Virus record (IMG/VR): IMGVR_UViG_3300031760_000016
Coordinates: 43,455 to 107,454 of that record
DNA from: a virus
Lineage: Duplodnaviria; Heunggongvirae; Uroviricota; Caudoviricetes
Reading direction: 5' to 3' (one strand)
Length of the DNA: 64,000 nucleotides
The notes under the pieces were generated by a model. It had not been told where the DNA came from. It was given only the letters and a program-made list of their open reading frames with translations, and did not search any database. Below, one piece after another: positions 11,069-64,000 of this stretch; the stretch's first letter is position 1, and every line of letters begins with the position of its first letter. A program made the position numbers and the translations under genes.

Positions 11069-11894
11069 TGTGTCGAGGCATGACAAGACCATTGACTGGG
11101 ATAAAGCCAGGAAGGAACTGGACTTTGTCATCATCAGATCCAGCGTCGGGTTGAAGACCGACCCGCAGTTCGTACGAAACGCGCTTCTCTGTGGGATCCC
11201 GTTCGGCGTATATCATTACGTTGAAGCTGGGACGGCGGAAGCCGCTGAGAAGGAAGCAGAATACTTCTATCACGCGGCGCGAGGGTTTTCCGACGAAAAA
11301 ACCGTGTACGCCAAGAATAAAAAGCCGGCGATGGTTGCCAAAGAGGGAGATATTTCTCCGCTGTTCTGGGCGGTTGACATCGAAGCTGACGCGCAAACCC
11401 GCGAAACCACAGAGACTGTGACGCGTGCCTTCCTGGAAAAACTTCGCTCGTTTGGAGTGAGGAAGATTGGTCTGTATGCCAACACGCGCAGGAAGTACAT
11501 GAGCGACGAACTCGTGGCTTCGTTCGATTGGACGTGGGTGCCGCGATACGGCCCGGATGATGGTGAAGCCCACCCGGATGAATTTCCGCCTAAATACCCT
11601 TGTGATATCTGGCAGTATACTACGGTCGGTGCAATCGACGGTATTGACCATGATGTTGATCTGAATATGCTTTACGGCGAAAAACCTCTGGAGTATTTCA
11701 CTATGCGATCAGCTGTGAAAATTACCGGTGGATCTGTTAACGTAAGAGAATTCGCTGGGACGAGCAGCAAGATTGTTGGGGTTGCACATGCCGGCGATAT
11801 TTTGGAGCGAGTGGGCTTGGATGGATGGGTGCCGGTGGTGTGGAACGGCAGGATGTGCTGGGTTTCCTGGAAACATGCTGAGAGCGTGGACTAA
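11043..11894 (+). CDS. Endolysin: GH25 muramidase + SH3 domain
   Basis: 283 aa. IIDVSRHDKTIDWDKARKELDFVIIRSS, GVYHYVEA and DIWQYTTVGAIDGIDHDVDLNMLYG are GH25 family blocks. C-terminal SH3_3-like beta region. Confidence 0.8.
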   Translation: MVTTARIIDVSRHDKTIDWDKARKELDFVIIRSSVGLKTDPQFVRNALLCGIPFGVYHYVEAGTAEAAEKEAEYFYHAARGFSDEKTVYAKNKKPAMVAKEGDISPLFWAVDIEADAQTRETTETVTRAFLEKLRSFGVRKIGLYANTRRKYMSDELVASFDWTWVPRYGPDDGEAHPDEFPPKYPCDIWQYTTVGAIDGIDHDVDLNMLYGEKPLEYFTMRSAVKITGGSVNVREFAGTSSKIVGVAHAGDILERVGLDGWVPVVWNGRMCWVSWKHAESVD

Positions 11895-11928
11895 ACGAGA
11901 ACAGAGACAACCATCTATGCAAAAACCG

Positions 11929-11958
11929 TTGACGATCTGAGTGTTTTTTGAGTATAAT
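11929..11958 (+). promoter_or_regulatory. Sigma70-like promoter (TTGACG - 18 nt - TATAAT) upstream of the ToxI leader region
   Basis: ttgacg at 11929-34 and tataat at 11953-58; read directly from the sequence. Confidence 0.4.
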
Positions 11959-12128
11959 AACCTTAGCTTATGATACCAGAGCTCGTTCAGGGAGTGAAAG
12001 TGGAGGCTCTGAATGGGGTTAGCGCTTAGCCGTTGCCTGAATAGGGTCGCCGAAAAAGAAAAGCGTATATATGCACTGAGCAAGCGAAATTCATGAAAAT
12101 GGCATTCTACTTAACATTAAATTCGCCA

Positions 12129-12157
12129 TTGACATTTCGCATGCATTGGAGTATAAT
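12129..12157 (+). promoter_or_regulatory. Near-consensus sigma70 promoter (TTGACA - 17 nt - TATAAT) driving the ToxI-ToxN locus
   Basis: ttgaca at 12129-34 and tataat at 12152-57 with a 17-nt spacer, 25 nt upstream of the first repeat. Confidence 0.65.
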
Positions 12158-12182
12158 AGTCTTGTCGGAAGAGATTCCGATA

Positions 12183-12294
12183 GCGGTGCGCCACTACCAT
12201 ATAAGTGTGGACTCAAAAAAGCGGTGCGTCCCAACCATGATAGGGAACCGAAAAAAAGCGGTGCTCCCCAACCAATAATCGGGGATTAAAAACA
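12183..12294 (+). ncRNA. ToxI-like type III antitoxin RNA: about 2.8 tandem 37-38-nt repeats
   Basis: Units start GCGGTGC at 12183, 12221 and 12258. Each unit ends in an A-run and the middles have diverged. Spurious ORF 12093..12278 overlaps this region. Confidence 0.6.
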
Positions 12295-19772: not shown

Positions 19773-21278
19773 TCACTCGCATCGCGACCAGCCGCAGGAC
19801 TTGCAGACGTCGCAGCCGCCCTCATGGACGATCTCGTTCCCGCACTTTGGACACAGGTGCTTTTCGCCCTTTGCGGGCTTGACCGTATCTTCGTGAACAT
19901 GCGGCTTGTGAGGATCGCAAACCTCAGGGGTTTCAGGCGATCCGATCTCAGACTGCATTTCCGTCCACATATCCATGAGCGCGTTACCAATGGCTACGGG
20001 GCAGCATGAACCCTTGGACGTGTCGTGCTTGGTGGCGGAGCGCACAGCGTAAGAGGGGCAGACGCCGCAGCTGTGAAGCTGGTCTACGATGGCGAATATA
20101 TCGCACCCGGATCTGGCGGCGAGTGAAATCATCCGGCTGAGGCCGACCATGTAATTGTTGCAGCCGCCGGAGGATCCCTTGCTGAGATAGGTTTCCAGAA
20201 GGTCGCCGTTTTCCGGGTCAAAGAATGCAGTACAATGCAGAGATCCGCACCCCGTGGTGAGCTTGCGCTTCTTGCCGACCACATTATCGGACGATTCGAT
20301 GACCGCGCCGCGAGGGAGTACGTCGATCTCATTGAGTTTTTCGCTCTTGGGAGTGGGTTCTGGAGCTGGATTTTCCTCTTTCTTCGTCTCGGTCGTCAGT
20401 ATGCCGGCCCGGCGGCAACCGTTTCTGAAGACGGTGATGCCCTTCAGGCCATTTTCCCAGGCGTCGAAATAGATCTTTTCAACGTCTTCAACCGTCGCTT
20501 CGAACGGAAGGTTGACGGTAGAAGAAATTGAGGCGTCGATGTAGCGCTGCCATGCCGCCTGCATGAGCACGCGGTCGTGCGGAGCGATGTCCGCCGAGGT
20601 CACGAAGAAATCCGGAAGTTCAGAGTCGTCCTTGAGGTTGTGGGCTTCCATGTAGGTTTTTACAATGGGAGTGTAAACCTTGTACTCCTTCGCCTCTTCG
20701 TACAGGCTTTCAGTTTTACGGGTGTAGAAGTTGGCAAAGATGGGCTCCAGGCCACCCGACACGCCGATCATCGTTGACAGGGTGCCGGTGGGCGCGATCG
20801 TCAAGAGCTGGCTGTTTCTCAGGCCATACTCATGTATGTATTTTTTGTTGTCTTCGGAGATATTCAGGGAGTAGAACGGTGACTTCGCAAGTTTTTGCTC
20901 GTCGTACATGGGGAACGGGTCGTCCTGCGCTGCGAGATTTGCCGAAGCATATACAGCGGAATTGAGGATGGTGTCGGCAACCGAACGGCAAATATCAATG
21001 GATTCAGGGCTGCCATACCTCACGCCCATTTTGATGAGCATGTCGGCAACGCCCATGACGCCGAGGCCGATCTGTCTCCAGTCCCTCACGCTGTCGCGCT
21101 GCTCCTGCAGCGGGTGGAGGGGAAGACCCTCATCGAGTACGTCGTTCAGGGCTACAGTCGCGATGAATGCGGCCTCGCCGAGTTCTTCAAAGTCAAGGTT
21201 GCCGTTTGAGTCAACAAATTCGGCGAGATTCAAACTACCGAGCAGGCAGCTCCCGCCGGGCGGCAACGGTTCCTCTGC
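19773..21278 (-). CDS. nrdJ: Class II (B12-dependent, NrdJ-like) ribonucleotide reductase, exon 2
   Basis: Begins AEEPLPPGGSCLLGSLNL, the RNR active-site loop following NPC. Contains TIAPTGTLS and a C-terminal 4-Cys ribbon (CPKCG...CDVCKSCG). No small subunit nearby. The ORF-track start at 21281 is an artificial TTG. Confidence 0.7.
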   Translation of the reverse strand, partial: AEEPLPPGGSCLLGSLNLAEFVDSNGNLDFEELGEAAFIATVALNDVLDEGLPLHPLQEQRDSVRDWRQIGLGVMGVADMLIKMGVRYGSPESIDICRSVADTILNSAVYASANLAAQDDPFPMYDEQKLAKSPFYSLNISEDNKKYIHEYGLRNSQLLTIAPTGTLSTMIGVSGGLEPIFANFYTRKTESLYEEAKEYKVYTPIVKTYMEAHNLKDDSELPDFFVTSADIAPHDRVLMQAAWQRYIDASISSTVNLPFEATVEDVEKIYFDAWENGLKGITVFRNGCRRAGILTTETKKEENPAPEPTPKSEKLNEIDVLPRGAVIESSDNVVGKKRKLTTGCGSLHCTAFFDPENGDLLETYLSKGSSGGCNNYMVGLSRMISLAARSGCDIFAIVDQLHSCGVCPSYAVRSATKHDTSKGSCCPVAIGNALMDMWTEMQSEIGSPETPEVCDPHKPHVHEDTVKPAKGEKHLCPKCGNEIVHEGGCDVCKSCGWSRCE

Positions 21279-22164
21279 CAAAGAGGTATTTAGACTATAT
21301 CTTCACCCTACGCACACATCTGTAGGGGGTTCGCACTCTTCAAATCGACCTGTATAGACCATAATTCATCGGACATCCATGCCGGTTGGCATTCATATCC
21401 GAGGTAAGCCTTATACAGCATTGAAGGGACGAGATAGGGGATGATCAAACTGAAGAAAATGTTGTAGCTCTCCTTCTTGATTCTGAGCCTTGTGAATTTC
21501 CCGCGCTTGACCAATGAGGTTTTGATGTCATAGTTTTCCAGAAGAGCATCCTGAATGGTCTTGATGTCGTCGTATGTATATCGGTCTGTGCAGAAATCAA
21601 CGCGCCTGTCGGTGATTGTACCTTTACTCCGTCCGACCAGGCAGACGTAACCGTCTGACATGTACCAGTTTGCCAGACCGTACGGCGTGAGCCAGTCGAG
21701 CGCTTCCCGGGTGATTATTCTGTGGCGGTAATCATCATAGAAGTTGTTGTATATTTTGGTAAAATACGGATGGGCGAGTATTATGTATTCCCAGTTCTCC
21801 TGATGATTGCACCAGCCTGAATAATGCTCCGGCGTGTAAATGACTTTGGATTTAAAACCCGAGCAGCTTTCGATTTCCTCTGCGATATTATTGATGAAGT
21901 CCTGATGAATGCTCTTGATTCTGAATGCCCGCTTATGGACACCCTTGTCTATCATCCCGTCACCGAGTATTAGTCCTGTTAAGAACCCTCTTAACTCTGA
22001 ACTGTTCATATGTTATAGCCCCCTATAACTGTTTTTTCGATTTGATTTTAGTCGTTGAACCTTCCTCATATTTCTGAGGCTTGGCTGCTGATTGCCTTTC
22101 GGTTTCCAGCAATTCGCGAACGATTGTTTTCATGAGATTGCTCTCAAGCCCTGCGCAAAAGTTC
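21279..22164 (-). mobile_element. Group I intron in nrdJ carrying a LAGLIDADG homing endonuclease ORF
   Basis: Exon 1 stops reading 5 codons after NPC; exon 2 resumes in frame after a G. Minus strand shows Q-like AAUCAGCAGCCAAGCC, R-like AAGGUUCAACGACUAA and, near the 3' end, S-like GAAGAUAUAGUC. The HEG ORF sits between them. Confidence 0.7.
21308..22009 (-). CDS. LAGLIDADG-family homing endonuclease (intron-encoded)
   Basis: 233 aa. GFLTGLILGDGMIDKG is a LAGLIDADG motif. Own start and stop inside the intron. Confidence 0.6.
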   Translation of the reverse strand: MNSSELRGFLTGLILGDGMIDKGVHKRAFRIKSIHQDFINNIAEEIESCSGFKSKVIYTPEHYSGWCNHQENWEYIILAHPYFTKIYNNFYDDYRHRIITREALDWLTPYGLANWYMSDGYVCLVGRSKGTITDRRVDFCTDRYTYDDIKTIQDALLENYDIKTSLVKRGKFTRLRIKKESYNIFFSLIIPYLVPSMLYKAYLGYECQPAWMSDELWSIQVDLKSANPLQMCA

Positions 22165-22971
22165 ACAGGGATTTGTGCCAGCGTATTCAAAGTTCTCATA
22201 TTCACTCAGCAGGTTCCAGCTGGAGATCATGTCCCAGAACAGCATTCCGGGTTCTCCCATGTCCCAGTTGTTCTCCGCGATGTGATGGAACAGCTGCCTT
22301 GCGTTTACGGTTTTGCGAATGGTTTCGCCGGTTTCGGAGCGCGTGAACCTGAGTTCAAACGGCTCATCGTTTTCCACGGCCTGCATGAATTCATCGGACA
22401 TGCGGACGGAAATGTTGGCTTTGGTGACGCGATCGAGATCCTTCTTGATGTCCACGAATTCCTCGATGTCCGGGTGATCACAGCTCAGAGAGAGCATCAG
22501 CGCACCGCGCCGGCCATTCTGGGAAATCAGCCCGGTAACCATGGAATACAGATCCATGAACGACACCGCGCCGGAACTCGCCTTTGCCGCGTTTCTCACG
22601 ACCGCGCCCCTGGGTGCCAGCTTTGACAGGTCAGTGCCGCATCCTCCGCCGTACGAATACGTGCGAGCCAGCTTCTTGGCGCAATCAAAGATGGATTCGA
22701 GGTTGTCCTCAGGAGGCGTGACGACATAGCAGTTACTATAGCTGATTTTCTTTCCTTCTTTTGTGAGTCCGCGGTTGGCGAGGATGCGCCCTCCAAACAG
22801 GAATTTCTTTTCCAGAATCAGGCGTTTGACCTGAGGGTCATTACCGCTCACTCTGGTCACCCATTCCAGAAAGCTTTCGCCATCATTGCGGTATTTCTGC
22901 TCCCAGATGTTTATGCCGATCTGATTATCAGCGCCGAGCCAATCCTGTACCGTCATTTCTCTGGCATCCAA
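22165..22971 (-). CDS. nrdJ: Class II ribonucleotide reductase, exon 1
   Basis: Blocks IWEQKY...LEWVTRVS, SNCYVV and GGGCGTDLSKLAPRGA; ends ...YAGTNPC at the intron insertion point. Confidence 0.7.
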
Positions 22972-29206: not shown

Positions 29207-29527
29207 TTAGTAGGGCTCAAAGGGGCTGTGTTGCGTTGCCTCCTCGTACAGAATCTTGTCGCCTTGGAAGTTCACGTCTATGTACTCGCCCTCGTTCATT
29301 TGCGGTCCGTTGCGGTTGAATCGAACGAACAGCTTTTTGTTTCCGCAGACAGTCCCGTCTCGCTGAATCTCTTCTGGGGACTTGTCCTGAATCATGATGA
29401 TTGTGCTCGCATTTCTGGCAATCTTGGCGCTGTCCGCGAGGCGGCCTGTTGAGGTGGCCTGCGCCGCGCCGATGCCGGCGATGTTGAGTTCACCACACAA
29501 TTTGTTCTTGACCGTCAGTGTGTTCAT
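29207..29527 (-). CDS. dnaB: Replicative helicase DnaB, exon 2 (C-terminal segment)
   Basis: 106 aa. LCGELNIAGIGAAQ ~ LAKELNVPVIALSQ; GRLADSAKIARNAS ~ SDLRESGSIEQDAD; VRFNRNGP ~ AKQRNGP in E. coli DnaB. The 5' boundary is approximate. Confidence 0.6.
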   Translation of the reverse strand: MNTLTVKNKLCGELNIAGIGAAQATSTGRLADSAKIARNASTIIMIQDKSPEEIQRDGTVCGNKKLFVRFNRNGPQMNEGEYIDVNFQGDKILYEEATQHSPFEPY

Positions 29528-29791
29528 CTGCTTTCACAGATGCCTGGACTATATCATCGCTGCTTTCAGCGCCGACCGCTTAGTCTCTGAACCTTCCCCT
29601 GTTCGGGGCTTGGCTGCTGATTGCCCATTGAATCGCGCTTAGGATTTGACCGTACGCTATCCCGTGAATTCTTTCCGCTTTCGCCGCCTTCGCGCTCACA
29701 ACTTTCGCTGTCACGCTTTGGCTTCACGGGCTTTAGGGTTTTCCAGCAATTCGATCGGTTTTTCACGGCATTGCTACCGTGGGACTGGCCA
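29528..29791 (-). mobile_element. HEG-less group I intron splitting dnaB
   Basis: About 264 nt between the two DnaB exon ORFs. Minus strand carries Q-like GGGCAAUCAGCAGCCAAGCC, R-like AAGGUUCAGAGACUAA and S-like GAUGAUAUAGUCC. It shares 19-nt and 16-nt blocks with the nrdJ intron. Exact splice junctions are not determined. Confidence 0.6.
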
Positions 29792-30832
29792 TCAATCCAC
29801 GATTGAACCTAGGGAGGAGTACACGGCGTAGGCGTCCATATCGGACCCCGTGCCCTTGAAGTAATCGATGATCAGGACGTCAATGCCCTGCGTGTGAAAG
29901 ACGCGCTTGACGTTTGTGTACATCGTGCTTTCATCGAAGATCGGCATGTACAGATGCGTAAAGCTCTGCTGTTTCAGCCATGCGATCGCCTCGCTGATTT
30001 TCGCGGCTTCCGCGTCGTCATATCTGCCGGATCGCAGACGTTGAAACTCGATTCCCGTCAGATGGGAAATCATACGACATGTGAAAAGCTTGCTGTTCAG
30101 TTCGCTGTCGATATAAAAAACCTTGCGGCCGGCGCGGAGAAGATCCACCGCGCAATTGAGCAGCATCATTGACTTGCCTTGCTTCTGTTCAGCACCGAAA
30201 ATGATGAGCTCGCCGCGCTCGATCATCACGTAGTTGTTCAGCGTCGGAAATTTGAACGGGAAAACCGCTGCCATGTCGGGATTCTGCCGGGCTTCGATTT
30301 CCGTCCAGTACTTCTCGATCACGTCTTTGTACTGCGGAATCTCGTTCGTTGTGGAAAACTCCATGATGACGTTGTCGAGCAGCGACGTGATCTGCTGTTC
30401 AATGTTGCTGCATTCGGAGTTAAAGCAGATGTTCTCGCACTCCACGAGCCTTTGGTAAGTGTGCCTCCTGAACGCCGCATCGATCACGGCGTTCGCGACC
30501 ATCATATAATCCTCCGGCTCGCTTCTGGCGATCAGCGACGCGTTGTCGAAGAGTTCCTGAAGCGACTGGTTGGTGATGATCGAGTTGACGTTCTCGCTCA
30601 CGTGCTCGGTGCCGCGTTTCATGTTGAGAAAGTTGATGATGTTGTAGGCGTCGATCTGCTCGATGCCCTTCTTGGCGAGTTCGCAGACGGCGTAGTAGAT
30701 GTAGGCGTTCTGCGGATTGGTAAAGTAGTTCGGTTTGAGTTGTTCTGAATGGAATGTCAGTTCCGGCGTCATGACCACCGAGGCGATTACGCCCGCCTCG
30801 GCTTCGACATTCTTGATGTCACCTACTGTCAA
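29792..30832 (-). CDS. dnaB: Replicative helicase DnaB, exon 1 (N-terminal domain + Walker A/B)
   Basis: 346 aa. GELIIFGAEQKQGKSMML (Walker A) and VLIIDYFKG (H2). The ORF terminates where DnaB should continue; the rest is in ORF 29207..29527. Confidence 0.7.
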   Translation of the reverse strand: MTVGDIKNVEAEAGVIASVVMTPELTFHSEQLKPNYFTNPQNAYIYYAVCELAKKGIEQIDAYNIINFLNMKRGTEHVSENVNSIITNQSLQELFDNASLIARSEPEDYMMVANAVIDAAFRRHTYQRLVECENICFNSECSNIEQQITSLLDNVIMEFSTTNEIPQYKDVIEKYWTEIEARQNPDMAAVFPFKFPTLNNYVMIERGELIIFGAEQKQGKSMMLLNCAVDLLRAGRKVFYIDSELNSKLFTCRMISHLTGIEFQRLRSGRYDDAEAAKISEAIAWLKQQSFTHLYMPIFDESTMYTNVKRVFHTQGIDVLIIDYFKGTGSDMDAYAVYSSLGSIVD

Positions 30833-46303: not shown

Positions 46304-46837
46304 CTAGTCTGCGTTGATGACGTCGATGCAGCACTGCTTCATGATTTGCAGCGCGGCCTTGTGGTTGTCTTCGGTGGTTCCGGCGCAGCAGGACGCGTCC
46401 ACGGCGATGGGAACGTCGGGATAGTGCGCCCGCAGCAGAAGCGCATTGGAAACCACACAAATATCCGTGCAAAGACCGATGATTTCGATGCGGTCGTAGT
46501 GCTCCTGATCGCAGATGTAGTTCGCCAGATTGACGCTGCCGAAGGTGCCCTTCAAAAACCCGTCGGCGGATTCCGGCAGGGCTTCCATGACGCGATGGTC
46601 AAGCTGCCAGCCCGGCGAGCGAACGACGCAGTGCTCGACCGGAATGTGTTCGCCCTCAAGCGTTTCCAGATAGTCGTCAAAGTGCGTGTCCTTCGTGTAG
46701 AACACATCGCCGTCCCAATCGCGAATCTTATCGCAAACCCTGGGGACGATGGCTTCCGCCTGCGCAGACCCCAGCGGACCGGAGATGAAGTCGTTCTGCA
46801 TGTCCACGACAATGAGCAGGTTGTGGCTCAAAAGCAT
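46304..46837 (-). CDS. Isochorismatase-family hydrolase, nicotinamidase (PncA)-like
   Basis: 177 aa. LIVVDMQNDFISG (catalytic Asp block) and IEIIGLCTDICVVSNALL (catalytic Cys block) as in PncA/isochorismatase. Confidence 0.65.
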   Translation of the reverse strand: MLLSHNLLIVVDMQNDFISGPLGSAQAEAIVPRVCDKIRDWDGDVFYTKDTHFDDYLETLEGEHIPVEHCVVRSPGWQLDHRVMEALPESADGFLKGTFGSVNLANYICDQEHYDRIEIIGLCTDICVVSNALLLRAHYPDVPIAVDASCCAGTTEDNHKAALQIMKQCCIDVINAD

Positions 46838-46948
46838 CAGTCCTTTCTTTCTTTTTTGGTAATGGTCATGCCATCCACAGAGCGCCGAAGCCTAAATTGA
46901 TGCGAGGCGCTGTGCCCTCAGAGCCGAGCTGCTTGGAAAATTAAACTG

Positions 46949-46981
46949 ATAAACTCAAGTTATTCCTTAACTTGAGTTTAT
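46949..46981. repeat. Perfect 14-bp inverted repeat with 5-nt spacer
   Basis: ataaactcaagtta-ttcct-taacttgagtttat. Confidence 0.8.
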
Positions 46982-47809
46982 TGGGTTAACTTTACAAGCA
47001 GTGAGCAGGGGGCGGAGCTTTACTTCGGATGTCATCGCGAAGCCTCGGTATCGAGCGTCTATGTATCAGACCGGAAATCAAAACACCTCATCACGAACGG
47101 TGCGCATAAGACGCGGGGCGTCAGCATTCATCTGCAGCTGGCCGGCGCTCTTCATCAATCGCCGCGCCTCTTACGGCTTTCTTAGCAATGCACATAATGT
47201 TCGAAACAAAGCGCCTTTCAATCCCTCAACACCGGAATCTGCATGGCATGTTGTGTGGCGAACGGATATATCTCTGTGTAATTCAAATTCGTTATTCGTA
47301 TATCCGCTGTTAATTTGTATGTCCGCCACATTGCTACAACGGCGTTGCCGCCGGTATAACCGCATCAGGTTGGTCGTGCTTTCCCTTTGGAAACAAAAAC
47401 TTGGTCTTGCATACATGGCAGCCACGTGGAGAACCGCTGCCCAATCTGCTTTTAATGGCGAACCTGAACCCGTGGATTTGCGTAGTGCATAACCCATAGT
47501 GGATACTCAGTATTGAATAGGAACAAACTGCCCGAGGGCTCAATCAATAGTCAATGCTGAATATTCAGTCAATCAATGGCAAATAGTCAATGAGAAAACG
47601 TCGGGACTTCGGCAGCGAATATTTCTACAGCCTTCGCTGCGGGAGCAGCCCGATCACAATCTTAACATTTCTTCATATTTACCTTGAAGAATATCGGGTA
47701 TCACCCGTCATATTAGCGGTGCTTTGTTTTGTTTTTTACTTCAGTCAGAGCACCGAATGACAGAAGAAAAGCAGGAATGCGGTTTTCGCCACATATGCAA
47801 GACCTTTAT

Positions 47810-47908: not shown

Positions 47909-48577
47909 TCAGTATGTAACCTCGATGACGGTGGTGGCGTTGGCAACCTGAATGGCCGCGTCCACCCTGGACTCAAAGTCCGTGATTTCCTTTTCCAGAG
48001 CCAGAATGACCTCGTGGATGCCCAGCGGGTCGACCAGCTCCAGCTCGTGATTGCGCTTGTACTCCTCGATGCCGCTGTTGTACGCGGCAGCGTCAGCCTT
48101 CTCCTTGGAACCGTACAGGCTGTTCATGGCGTTCTCGGCGCGGTCGTTGAGCTCCTTGCCGTTGGCGCGTTCGATTGCTGCAACCGCCTTGGAATACAAA
48201 ACCGTATACAGCCGCAGAAGCTCACGCTTTTCTTCCGTGCCGTGGTGCATCATCCATATAGCCTGTGCGATGGAATAATCCTTGCCGGCCACGGTGATGA
48301 TCTTCTCGGCGTTGTAGTGGTTGATCGCCGATTTGATGGCCGCCTGCCTGCGGATCAGGTCTGTGGCGGACTGGTGGGAGCTGATCGCCCGATCCTTGAA
48401 TTCCGCCATCGTCATGCTGTTCACCTTCTGGGAACTGTGTTCCTTGGTTGCGACGGGCACGCAGTTGTTGATGGCACTGTCGATGCGCTTACCGAGCGTT
48501 TTCAGCTCGCACAGCGCTTCATGCACCGTCATGGTTTCGCGGACATTGGATTCCATTTCAACACCTCTCATAGTCAT
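47909..48577 (-). CDS. Hypothetical protein
   Basis: 222 aa. Preceded by repeat element A. Confidence 0.45.
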   Translation of the reverse strand: MTMRGVEMESNVRETMTVHEALCELKTLGKRIDSAINNCVPVATKEHSSQKVNSMTMAEFKDRAISSHQSATDLIRRQAAIKSAINHYNAEKIITVAGKDYSIAQAIWMMHHGTEEKRELLRLYTVLYSKAVAAIERANGKELNDRAENAMNSLYGSKEKADAAAYNSGIEEYKRNHELELVDPLGIHEVILALEKEITDFESRVDAAIQVANATTVIEVTY

Positions 48578-48746
48578 TATTGATTGGGTTTGGTTTCACA
48601 ACCTGAATAGCTCTGAGGCAGGGTTTTACCAGGATCTGCGATCCGGATACCTGAAGTGCGCCGGAGCTTGTATCACATGAACTCGAACTTGTCAAGTCCT
48701 GTGAAGGATTTCTTGTCAGGATGACCATTAAGATTTGCGCTCTGAT

Positions 48747-48950
48747 GGAGCTTGGATTGCGAAATCTTCACTTGGTCGGAGCTGGGTACGGGGTCGCACG
48801 GCTGCAGTGATCTGCATGCGGCGTGCCCGCTGCTCGCCGAACTCTGGCGCCGTCGGTGCCCGTCGTCATCTCGGGTCCCTCCGTCGTCCCGACAATTTGT
48901 TACTCTGGATATGATCGCAGAGCACTCGCAAAGAGTAATGCGTTGTGAAA
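48747..48950 (-). repeat. Non-coding element A (paralog of element B upstream of the RT)
   Basis: Shares ggagcttggat at one end and tcccgacaatttgttactcYggatRtgatcRcagagca at the other with 53263..53450. The interior has diverged. Confidence 0.6.
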
Positions 48951-49475
48951 CGATAGTTTTGTTGTCTCCTTGCATAAATATAGAATCTGACAGCACCCCT
49001 GAAACAGCGGATGTCTCCGGCGTTTCAGCTATGCTCTAAACGCAGAATTTCGATTTTACCTTGACTTTACATTGAAAAACCTCCTTCGCTGAGTCGAAAA
49101 GCTGGCCTGTCGCGGCACCTGCACAGCGGAACATTCTTGAGTGATGAATGCGGAGCTGTGTACATCAGGGAGGTTAAAAGGAACCGTAGGTTCCTTTGAA
49201 AACCCTGACTATGCGTCACTCCGGTGAAGCACGCAGAGCTGCGTCTCAGAGGATATGTACTGATCCGCAAATGTTCGTGCCGCGACCTGCCGTGTCTGTC
49301 ATCTGCGTTTACCAGGGCTTTGAACCTGCTGCATTGTCCCGGGAATGCAGGCCGCATTACAGATTGCGGATGGGGAAGGGGAAAACCATCCGCAAAATGC
49401 CAGCTGGTCTGGAAACCTGATCACACGCCAGATGGAACGCTGTGAAGGCTTGGCGCATGTACCAGGGTGGAAAAG

Positions 49476-49943
49476 TCAGTCGTTGAGCAAGGCGATGCAC
49501 CTGTCAACAATCTCACGGGTCAGGCCGGTATTGAAATCCGTCTTGACCAGATGCTCCATGTGATCGCCCATATCGGAATCGTCGTCGAGTATGACATAGC
49601 GTTCTGTGTTGGGGTGGCGACTGAACCATGCGGTAATGTCGTCGCCGCGCTCGCTTCCGACATAAGGCGTTTGATCCGCCACCTCGATGCCGTGATGATG
49701 AAGCTGAGTGATCAGGTTGTCATATGCCGTAGGAATTCTGCGCCATGCGGATGAGATGACGATCCTCGCGCCGGTCTCATCCACCAACAGCTTGAGCAGG
49801 CGGAGCGCCCGGTCTTCCAACAGATCCTCTGCGTAGACCCGGACGCCCTCCTCTTTATACATTCTCTGTGCCCAGGTGCCGTTGTTCAAAACGCCATCGA
49901 CATCCAGGAAGATAACTTTTTCCAAACCCTCCAGTGGGATCAC
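49476..49943 (-). CDS. HAD-superfamily phosphatase-like protein
   Basis: 155 aa. VIFLDVDGVLNNG (HAD motif I DxDGT/V), then ISSAWR and ILDDDSD blocks. Confidence 0.5.
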   Translation of the reverse strand: MIPLEGLEKVIFLDVDGVLNNGTWAQRMYKEEGVRVYAEDLLEDRALRLLKLLVDETGARIVISSAWRRIPTAYDNLITQLHHHGIEVADQTPYVGSERGDDITAWFSRHPNTERYVILDDDSDMGDHMEHLVKTDFNTGLTREIVDRCIALLND

Positions 49944-50135
49944 CCCTTGATGCCGTACTTTTCGCAGTACGCTTCAATGAACTTGATCATTTCCTCTTCC
50001 TCGGGGAAGAAGGGGTCGCGGCCGTTTGCCGCCATTTCGCCGAGGGCGTTCGACATGAGCTGCCCGAATCGCCAGTCGGGCAGCCTCCTCCACGCCTTTG
50101 CCAGGCGGTTGCAGAACGCCTGAATGCGATCGGGA

Positions 50136-50546
50136 TCACGCACGGATCTCAACCCCTTTCACATACTCGGTGCTGACCTTCAGCACGATCGGAATCTCGT
50201 AGACGCCGGCGGGAATGTTGATGATCGCGGGAGCCACAGCGGCAGTGTCGTCATGCTCCACAACGGCCTCCGGACGGCTCTCAGCGGCTGCCTGAGCGGC
50301 CGCAATCTCGTTCGCAGCTTCTTCCTTGGCAACGGATTCGACCGCCTCAGCGGCCTCCTGAGCGGCCTGAGCGGCAGCGATTTCACGCTGCATCTTTTCT
50401 TCTGCGTGAAGCTTGGTGAAGAAGTTGTAGATTGTGGTCGGCGCATAACCCAGAGCTACTGCGATCTGCTTGACGGTCGCACCGCGCTTGCGCATTTCCA
50501 GGATCATGGTGGCGTCGTTCTTGATACCGTTGTACTTGCAATTCAT
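50136..50546 (-). CDS. HTH DNA-binding protein
   Basis: 136 aa. RGATVKQIAVALGYAPTTIYNF is a helix-turn-helix; Ala/Glu-rich linker. Confidence 0.45.
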   Translation of the reverse strand: MNCKYNGIKNDATMILEMRKRGATVKQIAVALGYAPTTIYNFFTKLHAEEKMQREIAAAQAAQEAAEAVESVAKEEAANEIAAAQAAAESRPEAVVEHDDTAAVAPAIINIPAGVYEIPIVLKVSTEYVKGVEIRA

Positions 50547-51489
50547 ATTATGTACCTCCTACATATTCAATAGTGTTGGTGTGGATTTGGATTACATCAG
50601 AAACCCGGCGGTAACGAAAACCTCGTTGCCGCCGGAAACGCCGGTGATGTGCTCGCCGGTGAACTGGAATACCGCCTGATCCAGTTCCTCAAGGGAACCG
50701 ATGTCGTCGCCGCTGCCCAGCGGCATGGTGACGAAGTAGTGACGGTCGCAGAGAAACAGGATGAACTGGTTCGTGGTCGCTTCCAGGACGCCACAGTAGG
50801 ACTCGGTGCGGAACGAGCGCACTTTGTCAAATCCCATGCCGTTGACCGGGATCAAAAGCCGCTTAACCTCTACCATGCATATCCCCTCCTTGAACTGCTC
50901 TGAAATGGTCGGTCCTCATTGTGGAAAAGTAGCGAAAACCCGAGAAGCTGGTCTGGTCGGTCACGAAGAAGTCCCCGAGCTCAATACCTGAGCTGTCGCG
51001 GAACAGCGTATCGGAATCGATCCAGAAACGCTTTCCGATGGAGACCTGCTTCGGAAACGTGGGGCGGGCCAGAACGCATTCGACTTCAATCACTTTTACC
51101 TCCTTATAAAGTGTCGGTTATTGCCATCACCCGCAGATTTTGCCGGTGACGATGTCCACGTCAAAGCTGTCGCAGTGGCCGTCCAGATCCGGAATGGACG
51201 CGACCACCGAGACGACCTTGTGGAATTTGTTCCACGTTTCAGACTGATGCATGACGGGCTTCTGCGCCATGACATGCCATTCACGCACCGCGCCCTCCTT
51301 CAGGACGATCGCTCTGACGGATTCAGTGACGCTGCGCGGCAGTTTCCTTTTGCGCACTCTGTTCAGCCTCCTCGCTAATGTACTCGTGGTAATCGGATTC
51401 GGACGCGAAGAGCATCTTCATCCCGTTGGGAAGAAACCCGATGTAACCGGTGTCCGTCCAGAAACCCTTCATAGAGCACCTCCGTAAGT

Positions 51490-51690
51490 TCACACCCAGC
51501 GGCGGTTCACAGCGCCGCAGTACGGGCAGGGGATGATGGCGTAATCGCCTTCGTACTTGAGCCATTTGTAATCCACGGCGAAGATGCACTTGCACCGCAT
51601 GCAGCCGATCTCGGTCAGATCGGCTTCCTCGACCACGTAGTGCTTGGTGAAGTATTTGCTGCGCGGCCGTTCCGATTCAGGTTTTGCCAT
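51490..51690 (-). CDS. Small zinc-ribbon protein
   Basis: 66 aa, CMRCKC...CPYCG. Confidence 0.35.
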   Translation of the reverse strand: MAKPESERPRSKYFTKHYVVEEADLTEIGCMRCKCIFAVDYKWLKYEGDYAIIPCPYCGAVNRRWV

Positions 51691-51956
51691 TGCGCCCCTC
51701 CAGGATTTCGTTGTGCTTCGGCTTGATGACGCGCCACGCCATCAGCGTGTCCTCGATCCCGTCGTAAAGCTCTCCGTAGTCGGAACCGTAGATGATCGCG
51801 GCGTCGGCGTCCTCATAACGCTCATCATTGGCGATGGAAATGTCACGCTCCTCAAGAAAATCCTCGAAGATGTCAATGACCTGCCCGATGAATTCGTGCA
51901 GGTCACTTTCGCTCTGAATGCAATTCTTTGCCAAATCGATTCCCTCCCATCGGCGT

Positions 51957-53102
51957 TCAGGACTGTTCCTCAGATCTCAGCACGCTGCGGATCATCTTCA
52001 TGACGTTGACCCCGTGCTTTTCGTTAAACCACTTGATGAACTCCTCGACGTACTTCTTTTCGACCATCTTGTAGTAGCTGATCTGGCCGGAAAGCACATA
52101 GACGTCGTGGATATCCCACTTATCACCGCTCTGGTAATCCCTTATGAAGCTGGTGAGCGCCGCCTTGAGCTGGAGCTTCTTCTTGCGGCCGATGGTGATC
52201 TGATTGTCCCTGTTGAGCATGACGCCCAGATTCCAGTTCCTTCCGGCGCTGGATCCGTAGCGCGTCTTTTCGTCCTTCAGCTGGAACGGGGCGTTGAAGC
52301 TTGCCAGAACGGAATTGATATAGTCGCACATCTCCTTCGGATCGAAATCCTGCCTGTGCGAAAGCTGGATGTCATCGGCATACCGGGTGTAGACAAAACC
52401 CTTCTTGACCACGTCATTCATGATGCGGTGGTCGATGGGAACCATCATCAGGTTTGTCAGGGTGGGGGAGATCGGCGTTCCCTGCGGAAGCCCGCCGTCG
52501 AGGAAACACAGGCTCAGGGCTTTGGCAAGTTCATCCCTGCCGCCGGGAGCTTTGACGACTTCGCTGAACGGGAAGATGCGGGAAACCATATCGAACAGGA
52601 ATTCCTCAGTGGTGCTGCCGAAGAAATTGGAGAAATCCGTTTTCAGGAACCACCGGCTTTTGTTCTGCTGGTGGCGCTTGATGGCGTCGATGGTACTGCG
52701 CCCCTTGACGTAGGCGAAAGCCGCCGTGTGATACAGCGCACCGAAGTTGTTTTCCAGAATCGTGCGGAGCGTGCGCAGAGCGCCCATCAGTTCCGGCAGC
52801 GGTTCATCGATCTTGCGGTAACCCTTGGTGCGCTTGGGGATGTAAAACGTGTGGTAGAGCGAATGGCGATCCTTTTCAAACAGAAAAGCATAGGACGTAT
52901 TGAACGTGTGCAGAAGGCTGATGAGACCGGGGACGTTGAGATTGCGGGTGTAAGCCGGGCTGACCCAGTTCACCAGATGAGTCACCGTGCCGGTGATCTG
53001 GTGCTTGGGCGTGTCCCAGCCAAGCGGAACCCTGCCGAGAAGCACATCCTCAAACGAAAGCTGATGTGTTCTCGGCGTTTGCATGACGGTGATGTACGGC
53101 AT
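51957..53102 (-). CDS. Reverse transcriptase (retron/defense-RT-like, no maturase or endonuclease domain)
   Basis: RT motifs FLKTDFSNFFGS (motif 2), GLPQGTPISPTLTNL (motif 4), VYTRYADDIQL (YADD, motif 5), NLGV...ITIGRKKK (motifs 6-7). Start set to the ATG at 53102 with AAAGGAG 6 nt upstream; the ORF-track TTG start is at 53129. Confidence 0.75.
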   Translation of the reverse strand: MPYITVMQTPRTHQLSFEDVLLGRVPLGWDTPKHQITGTVTHLVNWVSPAYTRNLNVPGLISLLHTFNTSYAFLFEKDRHSLYHTFYIPKRTKGYRKIDEPLPELMGALRTLRTILENNFGALYHTAAFAYVKGRSTIDAIKRHQQNKSRWFLKTDFSNFFGSTTEEFLFDMVSRIFPFSEVVKAPGGRDELAKALSLCFLDGGLPQGTPISPTLTNLMMVPIDHRIMNDVVKKGFVYTRYADDIQLSHRQDFDPKEMCDYINSVLASFNAPFQLKDEKTRYGSSAGRNWNLGVMLNRDNQITIGRKKKLQLKAALTSFIRDYQSGDKWDIHDVYVLSGQISYYKMVEKKYVEEFIKWFNEKHGVNVMKMIRSVLRSEEQS

Positions 53103-53262
53103 ACGAACTCCTTTCTGATTGATCTGCAATCTGAATGCAGTGCGCGGTCTTCAGGGTAACCAGGAAGAGCTGAGGGATGTGATGATTGGGAGTCGAAACC
53201 CTGCCTGCTGAATCTCGCCGACTGCTGATGTGTCGGGAAAATGCGATCTTTTTCGACCTGTT

Positions 53263-53450
53263 GGAGCTTGGATGACCTAGAAGTGGTGGCTTTCAAGCTC
53301 GGACCGGTCGTCGCCGGATCAGCACCTGGGAGGAGAGCTCGATCGGCCGCCTTCCGCCGGCTGCCGCGGGTCGCCCCGTCTTCCCGACAATTTGTTACTC
53401 CGGATGTGATCACAGAGCATTGGGAAACCCAATAATGCATTGCAGACTTG
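53263..53450 (-). repeat. Non-coding element B, within the structured leader upstream of the RT
   Basis: Paralog of element A. Followed on the minus strand by hairpins, e.g. GCCCGCC-GGAA-GGCGGGC at 53450-53467 and AUUGGG-UUU-CCCAAU. Confidence 0.6.
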
Positions 53451-53472
53451 CCCGCCTTCCGGCGGGCTTGAA

Positions 53473-54237
53473 TCACATTTGAATCATGGACCGGAACAGT
53501 TCCAGAAGACCTTCGTGCTCATGGGTTTTTGAGGTTTCCAGACACCAGATGTGCTCGCCGGAATCAATTTCGATCACAGGGGCGTCCGGCTTGATGCGAA
53601 TCATGGGGTGGATGAGAAACACATCCCGGCACAAACCATGTGTCATGGAGCCAAAGTTGTATATGAGGATATGCCCTGCGTCCGAAACCCCGGTTCGAGT
53701 CATGATGTTCGAGTGGGGAACTTCGCCGATGGCCTGACTGAGCGCCGGGAGATACTCACCGTCCGGAACCTCGGGTACATCCACAAGCTCAGACTCGCTG
53801 GGGATCGAAACCTTGCAGGTGACCGTCTGCGCCCTGCCAAATTCCTTAATACTTCCGGGCGGAACGGCGATCGGAACCTCTCGGTCGATCAGCATGGCCA
53901 GCTCTTCGTCGTCAAAGAAGGTAAGGAAGCCGTCATACACGCCGTCCGGGCATCTGTCATACTGATGCATCGGAGTGTATGTAAAATCCTTGCCGCCGTT
54001 CAGCCACTGGAAGAGGTTGGAATGGGGAAAGTAGTTGTTGCCATAAGCGCGTTTTGCGGAAGACGGGCTTTCGAATTCGCGCCTGTCGAAGGAACGCCTG
54101 CCGACAGACCTCATGGCGAAAAGGTCATTGGAATCGGAAACCTTTTTCCAGAGAATGTCATCGTTGTTATCACCCAGATTGACGCCGATGTTCAGCTTGG
54201 TTCCCAGCGGCAGTTCACTGATCGTCAATATGCTCAC
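53473..54237 (-). CDS. Hypothetical protein
   Basis: 254 aa, no recognisable motif. Lies between the E1-like gene and the RT leader. Confidence 0.45.
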   Translation of the reverse strand: MSILTISELPLGTKLNIGVNLGDNNDDILWKKVSDSNDLFAMRSVGRRSFDRREFESPSSAKRAYGNNYFPHSNLFQWLNGGKDFTYTPMHQYDRCPDGVYDGFLTFFDDEELAMLIDREVPIAVPPGSIKEFGRAQTVTCKVSIPSESELVDVPEVPDGEYLPALSQAIGEVPHSNIMTRTGVSDAGHILIYNFGSMTHGLCRDVFLIHPMIRIKPDAPVIEIDSGEHIWCLETSKTHEHEGLLELFRSMIQM

Positions 54238-54259: not shown

Positions 54260-54955
54260 TCAGAACGCGTCCAGCTGGTAGGTGAAGGCGTCCAACAGGA
54301 TCAGCTTCTTGATGCCGTTGCCCTTGGCAAAGTTAATGAAGTTGGAAACCCCCAGCGCCACGATCGCCTTGACCGTGGAGCAGACGGACAGGGTCAGGTT
54401 GCAGGCGGAAACCGGCGTTTCGGCCTTGGCTTCATCGTGGGTGAACTGCATCGAGTTCAGAAACGCTTCCACCATCCTGCGATCCTCCCAGTTGGCGGCG
54501 TAATGCTGGGCGTCGGTCAGCCGCATCCGGAAGTCGAACATGCCCTTGATGAACAGGTTGTCCTTGTTGGCGGTGGCGATCTCGCGGCGCAGATCGATGT
54601 TGTCCACGCAGAGGAACACATAGCCGCTCAGCTTCTGGCCGACATAGCCCTTCTCAACCAGTTTCAAATCCCGGTCGATATCGGGATTTATCTTGTGCAG
54701 ATACTCGGCCAGCGCCTGAACCTTGGTCTTGCCGATGTCTTCCTGAGTGAACAGCTGGTTGGCAATGTTGTGGGGCTCGACGAAATCGAAGTCGTACAGG
54801 GTGATGCGGGTGACGCCGTAGCGCACCAGATTCTCAGCGACCGTGGAGCCGATCGCGCCGCAGCCGATGATGTGGATGCGCTCAGGGCACTTTTCAGGCT
54901 GGAAAAACTCGTAGCTCTTTGCCAAATCGATCATGAATTCAATCCTCCCTGTCAA
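54260..54955 (-). CDS. ThiF/MoeB/E1-like adenylyltransferase
   Basis: 231 aa. IHIIGCGAIGSTVAENLVRYGVTRITLYDFDFVEPHNIANQ is the Rossmann GxGxxG plus the D.D.VE.SNLNRQ ThiF signature. Confidence 0.7.
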   Translation of the reverse strand: MTGRIEFMIDLAKSYEFFQPEKCPERIHIIGCGAIGSTVAENLVRYGVTRITLYDFDFVEPHNIANQLFTQEDIGKTKVQALAEYLHKINPDIDRDLKLVEKGYVGQKLSGYVFLCVDNIDLRREIATANKDNLFIKGMFDFRMRLTDAQHYAANWEDRRMVEAFLNSMQFTHDEAKAETPVSACNLTLSVCSTVKAIVALGVSNFINFAKGNGIKKLILLDAFTYQLDAF

Positions 54956-61404: not shown

Positions 61405-62200
61405 CCAAATCCAAATCAGATTCGATTCCAGACCTTCAGATGCCCATGGCGAGCATCGTGAAAGCCCTTCTGCCGCGGTGCCAGACTTCGACGTCCAAAC
61501 CGCTTTTGTACCAGCGCATCGCTACGCTGCGAGACTTCGTGGTTTCCTGAGTCTCGCAGTTCACGTAGAAACTGCCTTTCAGGATCAAGTCGAAAAACCT
61601 CCATTCATTTTGGATTTCAAACCCTTGACTCTGCGTTTACACGGGCTTGTCACCGTCAGAGGCCGCATTAAGGGAGGCGCAGTCAATGTCAAGTAGTCGG
61701 CCAAATGCTTTGTACAGACGCTGCGCCCAGCCGTCTGGACAGTTCTTTGACCCGCGTGGATTATGCACCAACACGCTGGTGCTCGCGGAGAGTTTGAGTA
61801 TCACCACCTTAAAAACCCAAATTGGATTCAATTCCAGATCCTCAGGTGTGCCCGCTTTTTCTGGGACACCCAGCCCAAGAGCCTGAGCCGCTCTCGCTCT
61901 TTGCTCCACCGGAACTTTGGCCTACCCGATGGCATAGGCGAAAAACCCAAATCAGATTCGATTCCAGACCCTCAGCAGAACGACCATACACCGAGATCGG
62001 TATTGCGACTGAGCTGCACAGATCCGTCAGTTGCAGACAGGACATCGTGGATCCCAGCGTAATCGGGATTGCTGTCGATCTTGGTGGCCAGTTCGGCCTT
62101 TTCACACAGGGTCAGTTCGTGGGTGACCCAGATGATTCCATCAGTGAACATTTTCCACCTCGCTTGATTCAGATTCAATTCCAGACCCTCACGGTCTGGA
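61405..62200 (-). repeat. Four dispersed copies of a ~35-nt motif (minus strand CTGAGGGTCTGGAATCGAATCTGATTTGGGTTTTT) in a ~900-nt region without credible genes
   Basis: Cores at 61417-61434, 61821-61838, 61953-61970 and 62170-62187. The listed ORFs across them are translations of the repeat (ELNPIWVF / ESNLIWVF). Confidence 0.7.
61622..61672. repeat. Element X (ccttgactctgcgtt...ggcttgtcacc...gccgcattaagg), paralog of 63731..63792
   Basis: Three conserved blocks shared with the second copy. Confidence 0.6.
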
Positions 62201-63730: not shown

Positions 63731-63792
63731 CCTTGACTCTGCGTTAGGGGCTTGTCACCCGCCAGCGTTGTTCACACTGGGCCGCATTAAGG
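63731..63792. repeat. Element Y, second copy of the X element, immediately preceding the terminal tandem array
   Basis: Same three blocks in the same order. Confidence 0.6.
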
Positions 63793-63808
63793 TGGATTTT
63801 TCCTCTGG

Positions 63809-64000
63809 CTGCGGGGGGCGTTGCCGTCCGTCCGTTCTTTGTGCGGGGGGCGTTGCCGTCCGTCCGTTCTTTGTGCGGGGGGCGTTGCCGTCCGTCCGTT
63901 CTTTGTGCGGGGGGCGTTGCCGTCCGTCCGTTCTTTGTGCGGGGGGCGTTGCCGTCCGTCCGTTCTTTGTGCGGGGGGCGTTGCCGTCCGTCCGTTCTTT
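63809..64000. repeat. Perfect 32-nt tandem repeat (GTGCGGGGGGCGTTGCCGTCCGTCCGTTCTTT), 6 units, truncated by the window edge
   Basis: Units at 63809 (first 2 nt differ), 63841, 63873, 63905, 63937 and 63969. All others are identical. Confidence 0.9.

Follow-up and report, generated by a model that had tools for sequence, protein, structure and literature searches.

Retrons are bacterial anti-phage systems in which a reverse transcriptase (RT) is accompanied by one non-coding RNA (ncRNA); to our knowledge, several ncRNAs per RT are not a feature of the described retrons. Engineered retron arrays termed multitrons reportedly provide a retron RT with several template RNAs for multiplexed single-stranded DNA (ssDNA) production. 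DRT2 systems are said to carry an ncRNA upstream of a non-LTR prokaryotic RT of the UG2 class, with a stem that unites the ends of the template.

In the ncRNA of Retron-Eco1, the priming guanosine directly follows the a1 strand, and stem-loop P3 holds the RT recognition motif (PMC11754653). Mutational analysis of this ncRNA showed that the priming G, P3 and the msd flank of a2 are intolerant of changes, whereas P2 and the msd stem are tolerant (PMC11754653). In type VI retrons, one structured transcript, the hyRNA, is both the RT template and the carrier of the downstream coding sequence, and cDNA synthesis derepresses translation; the system is a bacterial defence operon encoding a small toxin and an HTH protein (bioRxiv 10.1101/2025.10.22.683967). 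Rolling-circle reverse transcription of the DRT2 ncRNA is mentioned in PMC12483538. In the full texts that we searched, we found no description of phage-encoded retron RNAs or of natural retron RNA arrays; an earlier description may exist outside this incomplete set.

Here, we describe a family of structured elements with conserved invariants that is strictly linked to, and co-oriented with, a retron-lineage RT gene of phages. Two of its full copies, A and B, are located in the 64-kb stretch of phage DNA analysed in this work, hereafter the window. The window encodes a family-B-like DNA polymerase, a primase, a DnaB-like helicase, RNR, an endolysin and tRNAs and contains group I introns, and all of the credible genes in the element region are located on the minus strand.

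The phage reverse transcriptase

The RT gene (51957..53102, minus strand) encodes a 381-aa protein with a YADD motif. We placed its start at ATG 53102, which is preceded by AAAGGAG; a TTG start at 53129, giving a 390-aa ORF, was rejected because this TTG lies inside the 3′ closing strand of element B. The protein matched Pfam RVT_1 (1.6e-17), while its best match in PADLOC was retron RT_II-A (2.8e-49) and its best match in NCBIfam was retron_St85_RT, with 185.7 bits, below the cut-off of 235. The best PDB matches were all retron RTs, i.e., Ec83 (8e-25) followed by Ec78, St85, Ec67 and Ec86. A group II intron RT structure matched at 1e-7, and the NCBIfam Drt2 model scored 45 bits against a cut-off of 390. 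Judged by these matches, the phage RT is in the retron lineage, as a retron-like enzyme and not as a member of a named type.

The phage enzyme differs from the RTs of retrons in an N-terminal extension of ~75 aa and in scores below the curated thresholds. Retron RTs carry a VTG motif, at the place of which the phage RT, inspected by eye, reads NLG. Additionally, PADLOC identified no retron effector among the RT neighbours in the window.

Homologues of this RT (~378 aa) are numerous in metagenomes, many of them on contigs of 50-300 kb, and the best 120 are 54-67% identical to it. From IMG/VR, 186 RT relatives were confirmed and 80 loci were kept; the GTDB genomes yielded 64 RT loci, all on MAG contigs, mostly binned with gut Clostridia. 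The match found in the GenBank phage collection was only 38% identical and unannotated, and no cultured phage there carries the RT. At the DNA level, only a tRNA was matched in the GenBank phages and an exact 18-mer had 0 matches in IMG/VR; the relatives were reached only through the RT protein. In five of the loci (L145, L148, L149, L155 and L156), the RT match spans 1359-1410 nt, compared with ~1134 nt, and no Rfam family was matched; these longer spans suggest an insertion or an intron in the RT gene.

Extent and anatomy of the two elements

The original prediction described A and B as paralogous plus-strand units of ~200 nt that begin with GGAGCTTGGAT and end with TCCCGACAATTTGTTACTC, about 250-300 nt upstream of minus-strand genes, one of them in the RT leader. 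The repeat itself is real: the window contains exactly two occurrences of GGAGCTTGGAT, at 48747 and 53263, and two of TCCCGACAATTTGTTACTC, at 48887 and 53382, and no dispersed repeat in the 64 kb is stronger than the shared 3′ block (48872-48932 and 53367-53427), whose 61 nt are 85% identical (self-BLAST E 5.6e-12). Nevertheless, the ~200-nt spans cover only a part of a longer unit, which was recognised by reading the RT-strand region upstream of the RT in the relatives and which extends over 53122-53447 in B and 48593-48951 in A. Both elements run 5′ to 3′ on the minus strand, as do the genes; the presumed end is the conserved 5′ domain, and the presumed beginning, which reads ATCCAAGCTCC on the minus strand, belongs to the interior. 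The spacing from the genes had been overestimated, since B stops 19 nt and A 15-36 nt before the start codons. B occupies the gap up to the RT ribosome-binding site, and A likewise occupies the gap before the 215/222-aa gene. Single-sequence folds of the originally noted spans on both strands were uninformative, with z-scores of -1.4 to 0.

Element B (326 nt) is located directly upstream of the RT gene, and a covariance model (CM) built from the element 5′ domain, R1, matched it at 53364-53458 with 69 bits (E 2e-14). All of its parts are given here as read on the minus strand. Its a1-like 5′ closing strand, GUCUGCAAU (53439..53447), pairs with the a2-like 3′ closing strand, AUUGCAGAU (53122..53130), over 9 bp that include one G-U pair. 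The 5′ strand is directly followed by an unpaired G at 53438, which corresponds to the invariant column G21 of alignment A3 and is the candidate priming guanosine. Then follow hairpin 1 (AUUGGG UUU CCCAAU; 53419..53433), variable in sequence, hairpin 2 (CUCUG U GAU CAC AUC CGGAG; 53398..53417), whose apical part is genome-specific, and a conserved single-stranded tail, UAACAAAUUGUCGGG (53383..53397), which is identical in A and B. The variable interior (53136..53382), a putative template or msd-like region, contains GGAGCTTGGAT at 53263-53273 and AAACCCTGCCT at 53196-53206, and it is joined to the 3′ closing strand by the junction UUCAG (53131..53135).

Element A (359 nt, minus strand) is the second copy; it has no RT of its own and was matched by R1 at 48869-48961 (70 bits, E 1e-14). 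Its 5′ closing strand, GUUUCACAAC (48942..48951), pairs with GUUGUGAAAC (48593-48602) over 10 bp, and the invariant G is located at 48941. Hairpin 1 (ACUC UUUGC GAGU; 48924..48936) is fully compensatory relative to its counterpart in B (AUUGGG/CCCAAU). The further parts of A are hairpin 2 (CUCUG C GAU CAU AUC CAGAG; 48903..48922), the tail UAACAAAUUGUCGGG (48888..48902) and the 3′ junction UUCAG (48603..48607). The gene downstream of A (47909..48577, minus strand) encodes 222 aa from ATG 48577 or 215 aa from ATG 48556, the latter having the better Shine-Dalgarno sequence; the product matched PHROG 1491 (E 3e-44) and no Pfam family above cut-off.

Over the 64 kb of the window, the CM identified exactly two full copies, A and B, and two weak partial matches, all on the minus strand and all within 6.5 kb of the RT. 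One of the partial matches is a third copy at 47020..47055 (minus strand; 18 bits, E 0.026), which consists of hairpins 1 and 2 and UAA only, without the G junction; its hairpin 2 bears the window-specific GAU...AUC motif, and it precedes the isochorismatase gene (46304-46837). Directly after this copy and ahead of the isochorismatase gene, a 34-bp inverted repeat (46929-47001; 85% complementary, 5-nt loop) is terminator-like on both strands. The other weak match (49203-49257) falls in a short conserved unit at 49172-49294 (minus strand), directly after a twister-like ribozyme. In this unit, a hairpin-2-like stem (CUCUG..CCGGAG UGAC) comes before a terminator-like hairpin, AAAGGAACC UAC GGUUCCUUUU. 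Its counterpart at L163 9690-9815 has 78% identity to it and a CM score of 25 bits. The unit may represent a small RNA akin to the elements.

Conserved structure and invariants of the element family

Across the related phages, the family members are predicted structured RNAs of 270-370 nt on the gene strand. The 5′ strand has the consensus YUGYAAU and pairs with a strand that follows at a distance of 173-397 nt (median 283), a little upstream of the next ribosome-binding site. The closing helix is 9-15 bp long, with a perfect 7-bp core in 124 of the 140 unique elements, although a 7-bp match alone could occur by chance over such a span. Positions -8 and -9, which flank the core and were unused in the choice of the partner, are paired in 87% and 79% of the elements, compared with 49% and 48% after shuffling. 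The 3′ strand is preceded by G at -1 in 70 and by A at -2 in 63 of the 77 non-redundant elements. Since the unselected flanks pair and AG precedes the partner, we consider this partner to be a fixed site. A G directly follows the 5′ strand in all of the non-redundant elements (83/83), and it is followed by N-A-U.

The 14 pairs of hairpins 1 and 2 are paired in 89% of the cells of a MAFFT alignment that was not fitted to the structure, compared with 65% in shuffled and 34-53% in slid controls, and the same alignment holds 237 doubly compensated cells, compared with 78. Over the 123 distinct CM-aligned copies, pairing reaches 94%. In hairpin 1, each of the six pairs shows double compensatory changes, with 78% (MAFFT) or 88% (CM alignment) of the cells paired. 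In hairpin 2, the proportion of paired cells is 97-99%, seven of the eight pairs show double changes and many G-U pairs are found. The abundance of G-U pairs and the rarity of non-pairs indicate folding of the RNA of this strand instead of a DNA duplex site. Compensatory base changes, which the original prediction had left to be looked for, are thus present in the hairpins as well as in the closing helix.

The two hairpins differ in how their sequences are distributed. Hairpin 2 has an identity of 0.83 between copies of the same genome and 0.57 between genomes, and its apical motif is GAUCAYAUC in the window and AUUGUAAAU in L013; such a pattern would be expected if the hairpin is recognised by a factor that the genome itself encodes. 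Hairpin 1 varies freely, with identities of 0.43 within and 0.33 between genomes. Hairpin 2 is followed by a conserved GUAAC..UUG tail, whose GU next to the hairpin and whose UUG guanosine show little or no variation in alignment A3, and then by a purine-rich tract.

No Rfam 15 family, including msr and the known ribozymes, matched A or B, either at gathering thresholds over the whole window or at E<=10 over 48400-53700, and the elements were likewise unmatched in 15 related loci. In a scan for sigma-70 promoters and terminators, the counts equalled those expected by chance. Apart from a mild A-richness, the sequences preceding the elements show no positional conservation and no conserved promoter, suggesting that the elements are probably internal to longer transcripts.

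Distribution and linkage to the RT gene

Further copies, whose absence from related genomes would have refuted the original prediction, exist in relatives, where the CM located them beside homologous RT genes. In total, 222 matches were found, of which 126 are in the window and 49-50 IMG/VR loci and the other 96 are spread over 43 MAG loci. All of them are on the RT strand, with 0 inverted, and within the RT-flanking DNA that was searched, all 222 are <=10 kb from a retron-type RT gene. An element is also present beside the 38%-identical RT of MT835544.

In the usual layout, one copy precedes the RT start by 200-400 nt, and one to three copies closely follow the RT stop. A copy starting 200-400 nt upstream of the RT start was counted in 33 of the 43 MAG loci, and 45 unique elements of the IMG/VR set are directly followed by the RT gene. 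The number of copies per RT ranges from one to eight. In the locus with eight copies (L016), several are arranged in tandem at intervals of ~400 nt, and no credible ORF separates them, which argues that the elements are not merely leaders; this array, downstream of the RT, also contains an RNase H gene (11783-12250; Pfam 4.7e-44). The 3′ end of most copies is 15-40 nt away from the following ribosome-binding site or start codon. The genes that follow vary and include the RT, a 224-233-aa protein, RNase H, a Macro-domain protein and a PD-(D/E)XK nuclease; the 224-233-aa protein has phosphoesterase-like motifs by eye and no Pfam match.

The closest relatives (RT 66-67% identical) have the gene order of the window. 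The orthologue of B is located upstream of the RT in L162, L163 and L164, and that of A is syntenic in L163 and L164, upstream of a gene for a 212-aa homologue of the 222-aa protein of the window; the A orthologues show compensatory changes in their distinctive GUUUCAC closing helix. Ahead of the isochorismatase gene, the syntenic site carries a truncated copy with only hairpins 1 and 2 in L163 (at 11665-11708) and L164 and a full copy in L162. In several relatives, the RT and its elements adjoin dense RNA-gene clusters, with up to 17 tRNAs, a tmRNA and a drum RNA within a few kb (L013 14211-14629 and L045 12682-12787; tRNA arrays in L006, L007, L010 and L013).

The variable interior

The interior of the elements comprises 150-250 nt, T-poor and purine-rich and then A/C-rich, and is poorly alignable between phages. 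Constrained MFE folds placed GC-rich hairpins after the purine tract and showed neither a common long msd hairpin nor a common global fold of the interior. The only small ORF seen by eye in the interior was a 10-codon frame in B. Copies of the same genome have completely different interiors.

Between close phage pairs, the identity is 93-96% in the 5′ domain, 66-88% at the 4-fold sites of the adjacent RT gene and 68-83% in the interior, whose identity is equal to or below that of the 4-fold sites. Comparison with these sites suggests that the interior sequence is essentially unconstrained, diverging at about the neutral rate, though its length and composition are kept. Evolution faster than neutral was considered and rejected; it appeared relative to all third codon positions, and relative to 4-fold sites the difference was small and confounded by alignment quality. 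If the interior is a template, its sequence would hardly matter.

Two motifs of the interior had drawn attention in the original prediction. The sequence GGAGCTTGGAT (ATCCAAGCTCC on the RNA strand) is common to A, B and the RT-upstream copy of L006 and is probably shared through common descent. The occurrence of AAACCCTGCCT in both elements in opposite orientation holds (53196; reverse complement at 48616); its reading as modular binding sites is not supported. An 11-nt complementary match of this kind arises in 21 of 2000 shuffles (~1%), and same-genome element pairs showed no enrichment for such matches. Pairing in trans of the A and B RNAs via AAACCCTGCCT, being neither general nor far from chance level, looks like chance.

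Proposed function and alternative explanations

With moderate confidence, we read A and B as retron-type primer-template RNAs, several of which would be served by one phage RT. This reading is based on the retron lineage of the RT, the closing helix, the invariant G, the AG junction, the covarying hairpins and the strict linkage to the RT gene. It is also based on a pattern of constraint that mirrors the mutagenesis of Retron-Eco1: the G, hairpin 2 and the 3′ junction are conserved here, and hairpin 1 and the interior are free. We also counted the RNase H gene inside the L016 array in its favour.

In the proposed mechanism, the elements would be transcribed from the minus (gene) strand and the closing helix would unite the 5′ and 3′ ends of the RNA, so that the 2′-OH of the invariant G would come to lie next to the conserved (U)AG before the 3′ strand. 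The enzyme would recognise the genome-specific hairpin 2, as the counterpart of stem-loop P3 of Retron-Eco1, prime from the G and copy the variable interior into ssDNA. B would act in cis and share a transcript with the RT, as in msr-msd-ret operons, whereas A, and up to seven further copies in other phages, would be extra templates served in trans. As for the products, our guess is that ssDNAs or RNA-DNA hybrids act as decoys or regulators during infection; an alternative guess, by analogy with the type VI retron hybrid RNA, is RT-gated control of the gene after each element.

Some observations count against a retron reading, i.e., the long putative template (~200-250 nt) without a common msd hairpin, the sub-threshold RT scores, the NLG motif, the lack of an adjacent effector and the presence of several ncRNAs per RT. 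Apart from the template length and NLG, these points, together with the phage host, also count against membership of the retron family proper. Since most copies end just before a ribosome-binding site, a leader function would also suit them. In such a case, the elements would be RT-independent cis-acting modules of 5′ UTRs or intercistronic regions, controlling the stability, processing or translation of the next gene, and their closeness to the RT would merely reflect a shared early or accessory gene cluster. The spacing of 15-40 nt to the Shine-Dalgarno sequence and start codon of varied genes fits this explanation, as does the location of all copies on the coding strand, probably within longer transcripts given the lack of a conserved upstream promoter. 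Nevertheless, it does not account for the tandem copies without an ORF between them, for the 222 of 222 CM matches <=10 kb from a retron-type RT in the RT-flanking DNA searched or for the clustering of full and partial window copies within 6.5 kb of the RT, and neither the junction with the invariant G nor a genome-specific hairpin 2 has an obvious role in a plain leader; we regard it as unlikely. Of the three RNA roles suggested in the original prediction, retroelement-associated RNAs fits the retron-type RT and the retron ncRNA architecture, and shared riboregulatory leaders is the weaker rival. We consider it quite unlikely that the RNAs are bound by the RT or another phage protein and not reverse transcribed, serving as translational operators, scaffolds or enzyme-titrating decoys. 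The genome-specific hairpin 2, the unconstrained interior and the truncated copies with hairpins 1 and 2 only, kept at conserved syntenic sites (window 47020-47055, L163 11665-11708), speak for binding, but the closing helix, the invariant G and the far-3′ AG, which together match a priming geometry, are left unexplained by it.

Two further explanations have less in their favour. A new self-cleaving or self-processing RNA, with a core formed where the closing helix meets hairpins 1 and 2, is suggested by the multi-helix junction with invariant unpaired nucleotides and by the twister-like ribozymes nearby (window 49295-49363; L162 795-846 and 1401-1463); it is very unlikely in view of the lack of a match to any known ribozyme family even at E<=10, the unexplained strict association with the RT and an unconstrained insert of 200-250 nt, which would be atypical. 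Explanations at the DNA level, i.e., invertible promoters, MITE-like elements, recombination sites with inverted repeats or the template repeat of a diversity-generating retroelement (DGR), could draw on the inverted repeats of 9-15 bp that flank a ~300-bp segment, on the adjacent RT and on the DUF6273 gene upstream of B. They are largely refuted and hardly credible to us, since 0 of the 222 copies are inverted, the internal hairpins covary with many G-U pairs, the interiors of same-genome copies are completely different and the RT is retron-type and not DGR-type. A DGR was also rejected after a one-base-type mismatch scan and a sensitive self-BLAST, which found no TR/VR pair with base-specific mismatches in the window.

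Returning to the reading as primer-template RNAs, the likeness to the ncRNA of retrons such as Retron-Eco1 (Ec86) extends over the whole element. Both are located directly upstream of a retron-lineage RT in the same orientation and have an a1/a2-type helix with a conserved G right behind its 5′ strand. Of their two msr-like hairpins, the first tolerates change, whereas the second is conserved and specific; a variable template region and a conserved flank of the 3′ strand complete the likeness. In contrast, the phage elements are 270-370 nt long instead of ~150-250 nt and have no common long msd hairpin, and their junction reads AAU|G.AU instead of UAGC. Unlike retrons, the phage system has 1-8 RNAs per RT, some in tandem, and no recognisable effector, and it belongs to phages with their own replication genes. 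Most phage elements abut the ribosome-binding site of the next gene, a position that recalls the type VI hyRNA and keeps a leader-type function in view; unlike the hyRNA, they precede diverse genes, and some have no downstream ORF. Multitrons and the phage arrays would have in common several templates per RT, the former being synthetic and the latter natural and phage-encoded. The phage elements also resemble DRT2 in an ncRNA upstream of the RT with a stem bringing its ends together, and no repeat motif for DRT2-type template jumping was found in them. With DGRs they have in common a non-coding region directly upstream of a phage RT, but here there is neither a variable repeat nor adenine-specific mismatches.

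More tentatively, it is possible that a large clade of uncultured phages of gut Clostridia took over retron machinery, so that one RT with natural arrays of 1-8 templates would produce several msDNA-like ssDNAs in the course of infection, for counter-defence or gene control and not for host immunity. If this is true, viruses would use retron-type reverse transcription for their own ends, and the arrays would be natural examples of one RT with many templates, relevant to multiplexed retron editing. The elements would amount to a new family of structured RNAs, whose G, hairpin 2 and AG junction are clear invariants open to testing. Through them, an RT family that has many homologues in metagenomes but lacks a cultured representative becomes accessible by way of a linked function.

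Other features of the region

The Twister-P1-like ribozyme of the window (minus strand) is located ~350 nt upstream of A and scored 59.1 bits (E 7.5e-12), below the gathering score of 67.2; the two twisters of L162 are also sub-threshold. Kinship between twisters and the elements was considered because the twister 5′ end, TCTGTAATGC, resembles the element junction; the L162 twisters share only their own UAAUGC core, so the resemblance was taken as coincidence.

Directly upstream of B is the gene for a 254-aa DUF6273-domain protein (53473-54237, minus strand), and a GC-rich hairpin without a U-tract (~53450-53467) lies between the stop codon of this gene and the element. A ThiF/E1-like gene (54260-54955) precedes the DUF6273 gene, and this gene order is kept in L162-L164.

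The two group I introns of the window are located at 29525-29804 and 21269-22174, both on the minus strand; one lies between the primase and DnaB-like helicase ORFs, and the other adjoins the RNR large-subunit ORF. A 32-nt tandem repeat, TGCGGGGGGCGTTGCCGTCCGTCCGTTCTTTG, occupies 63778-64000 with six full units and a partial seventh and runs past the window end; its copies are perfect except for the diverged first unit. Finally, three to four copies of the intergenic motif CCAAATCAGATTCRATTCCAGA were found at 61407-62192 (plus-strand coordinates), where 0 are expected by chance. Its gene-strand form, GGATCTGGAATCGAATCTGATTTGG, is found again in the relative L162 (720-1090), upstream of ribosome-binding sites, and the motif may be a phage promoter or operator.
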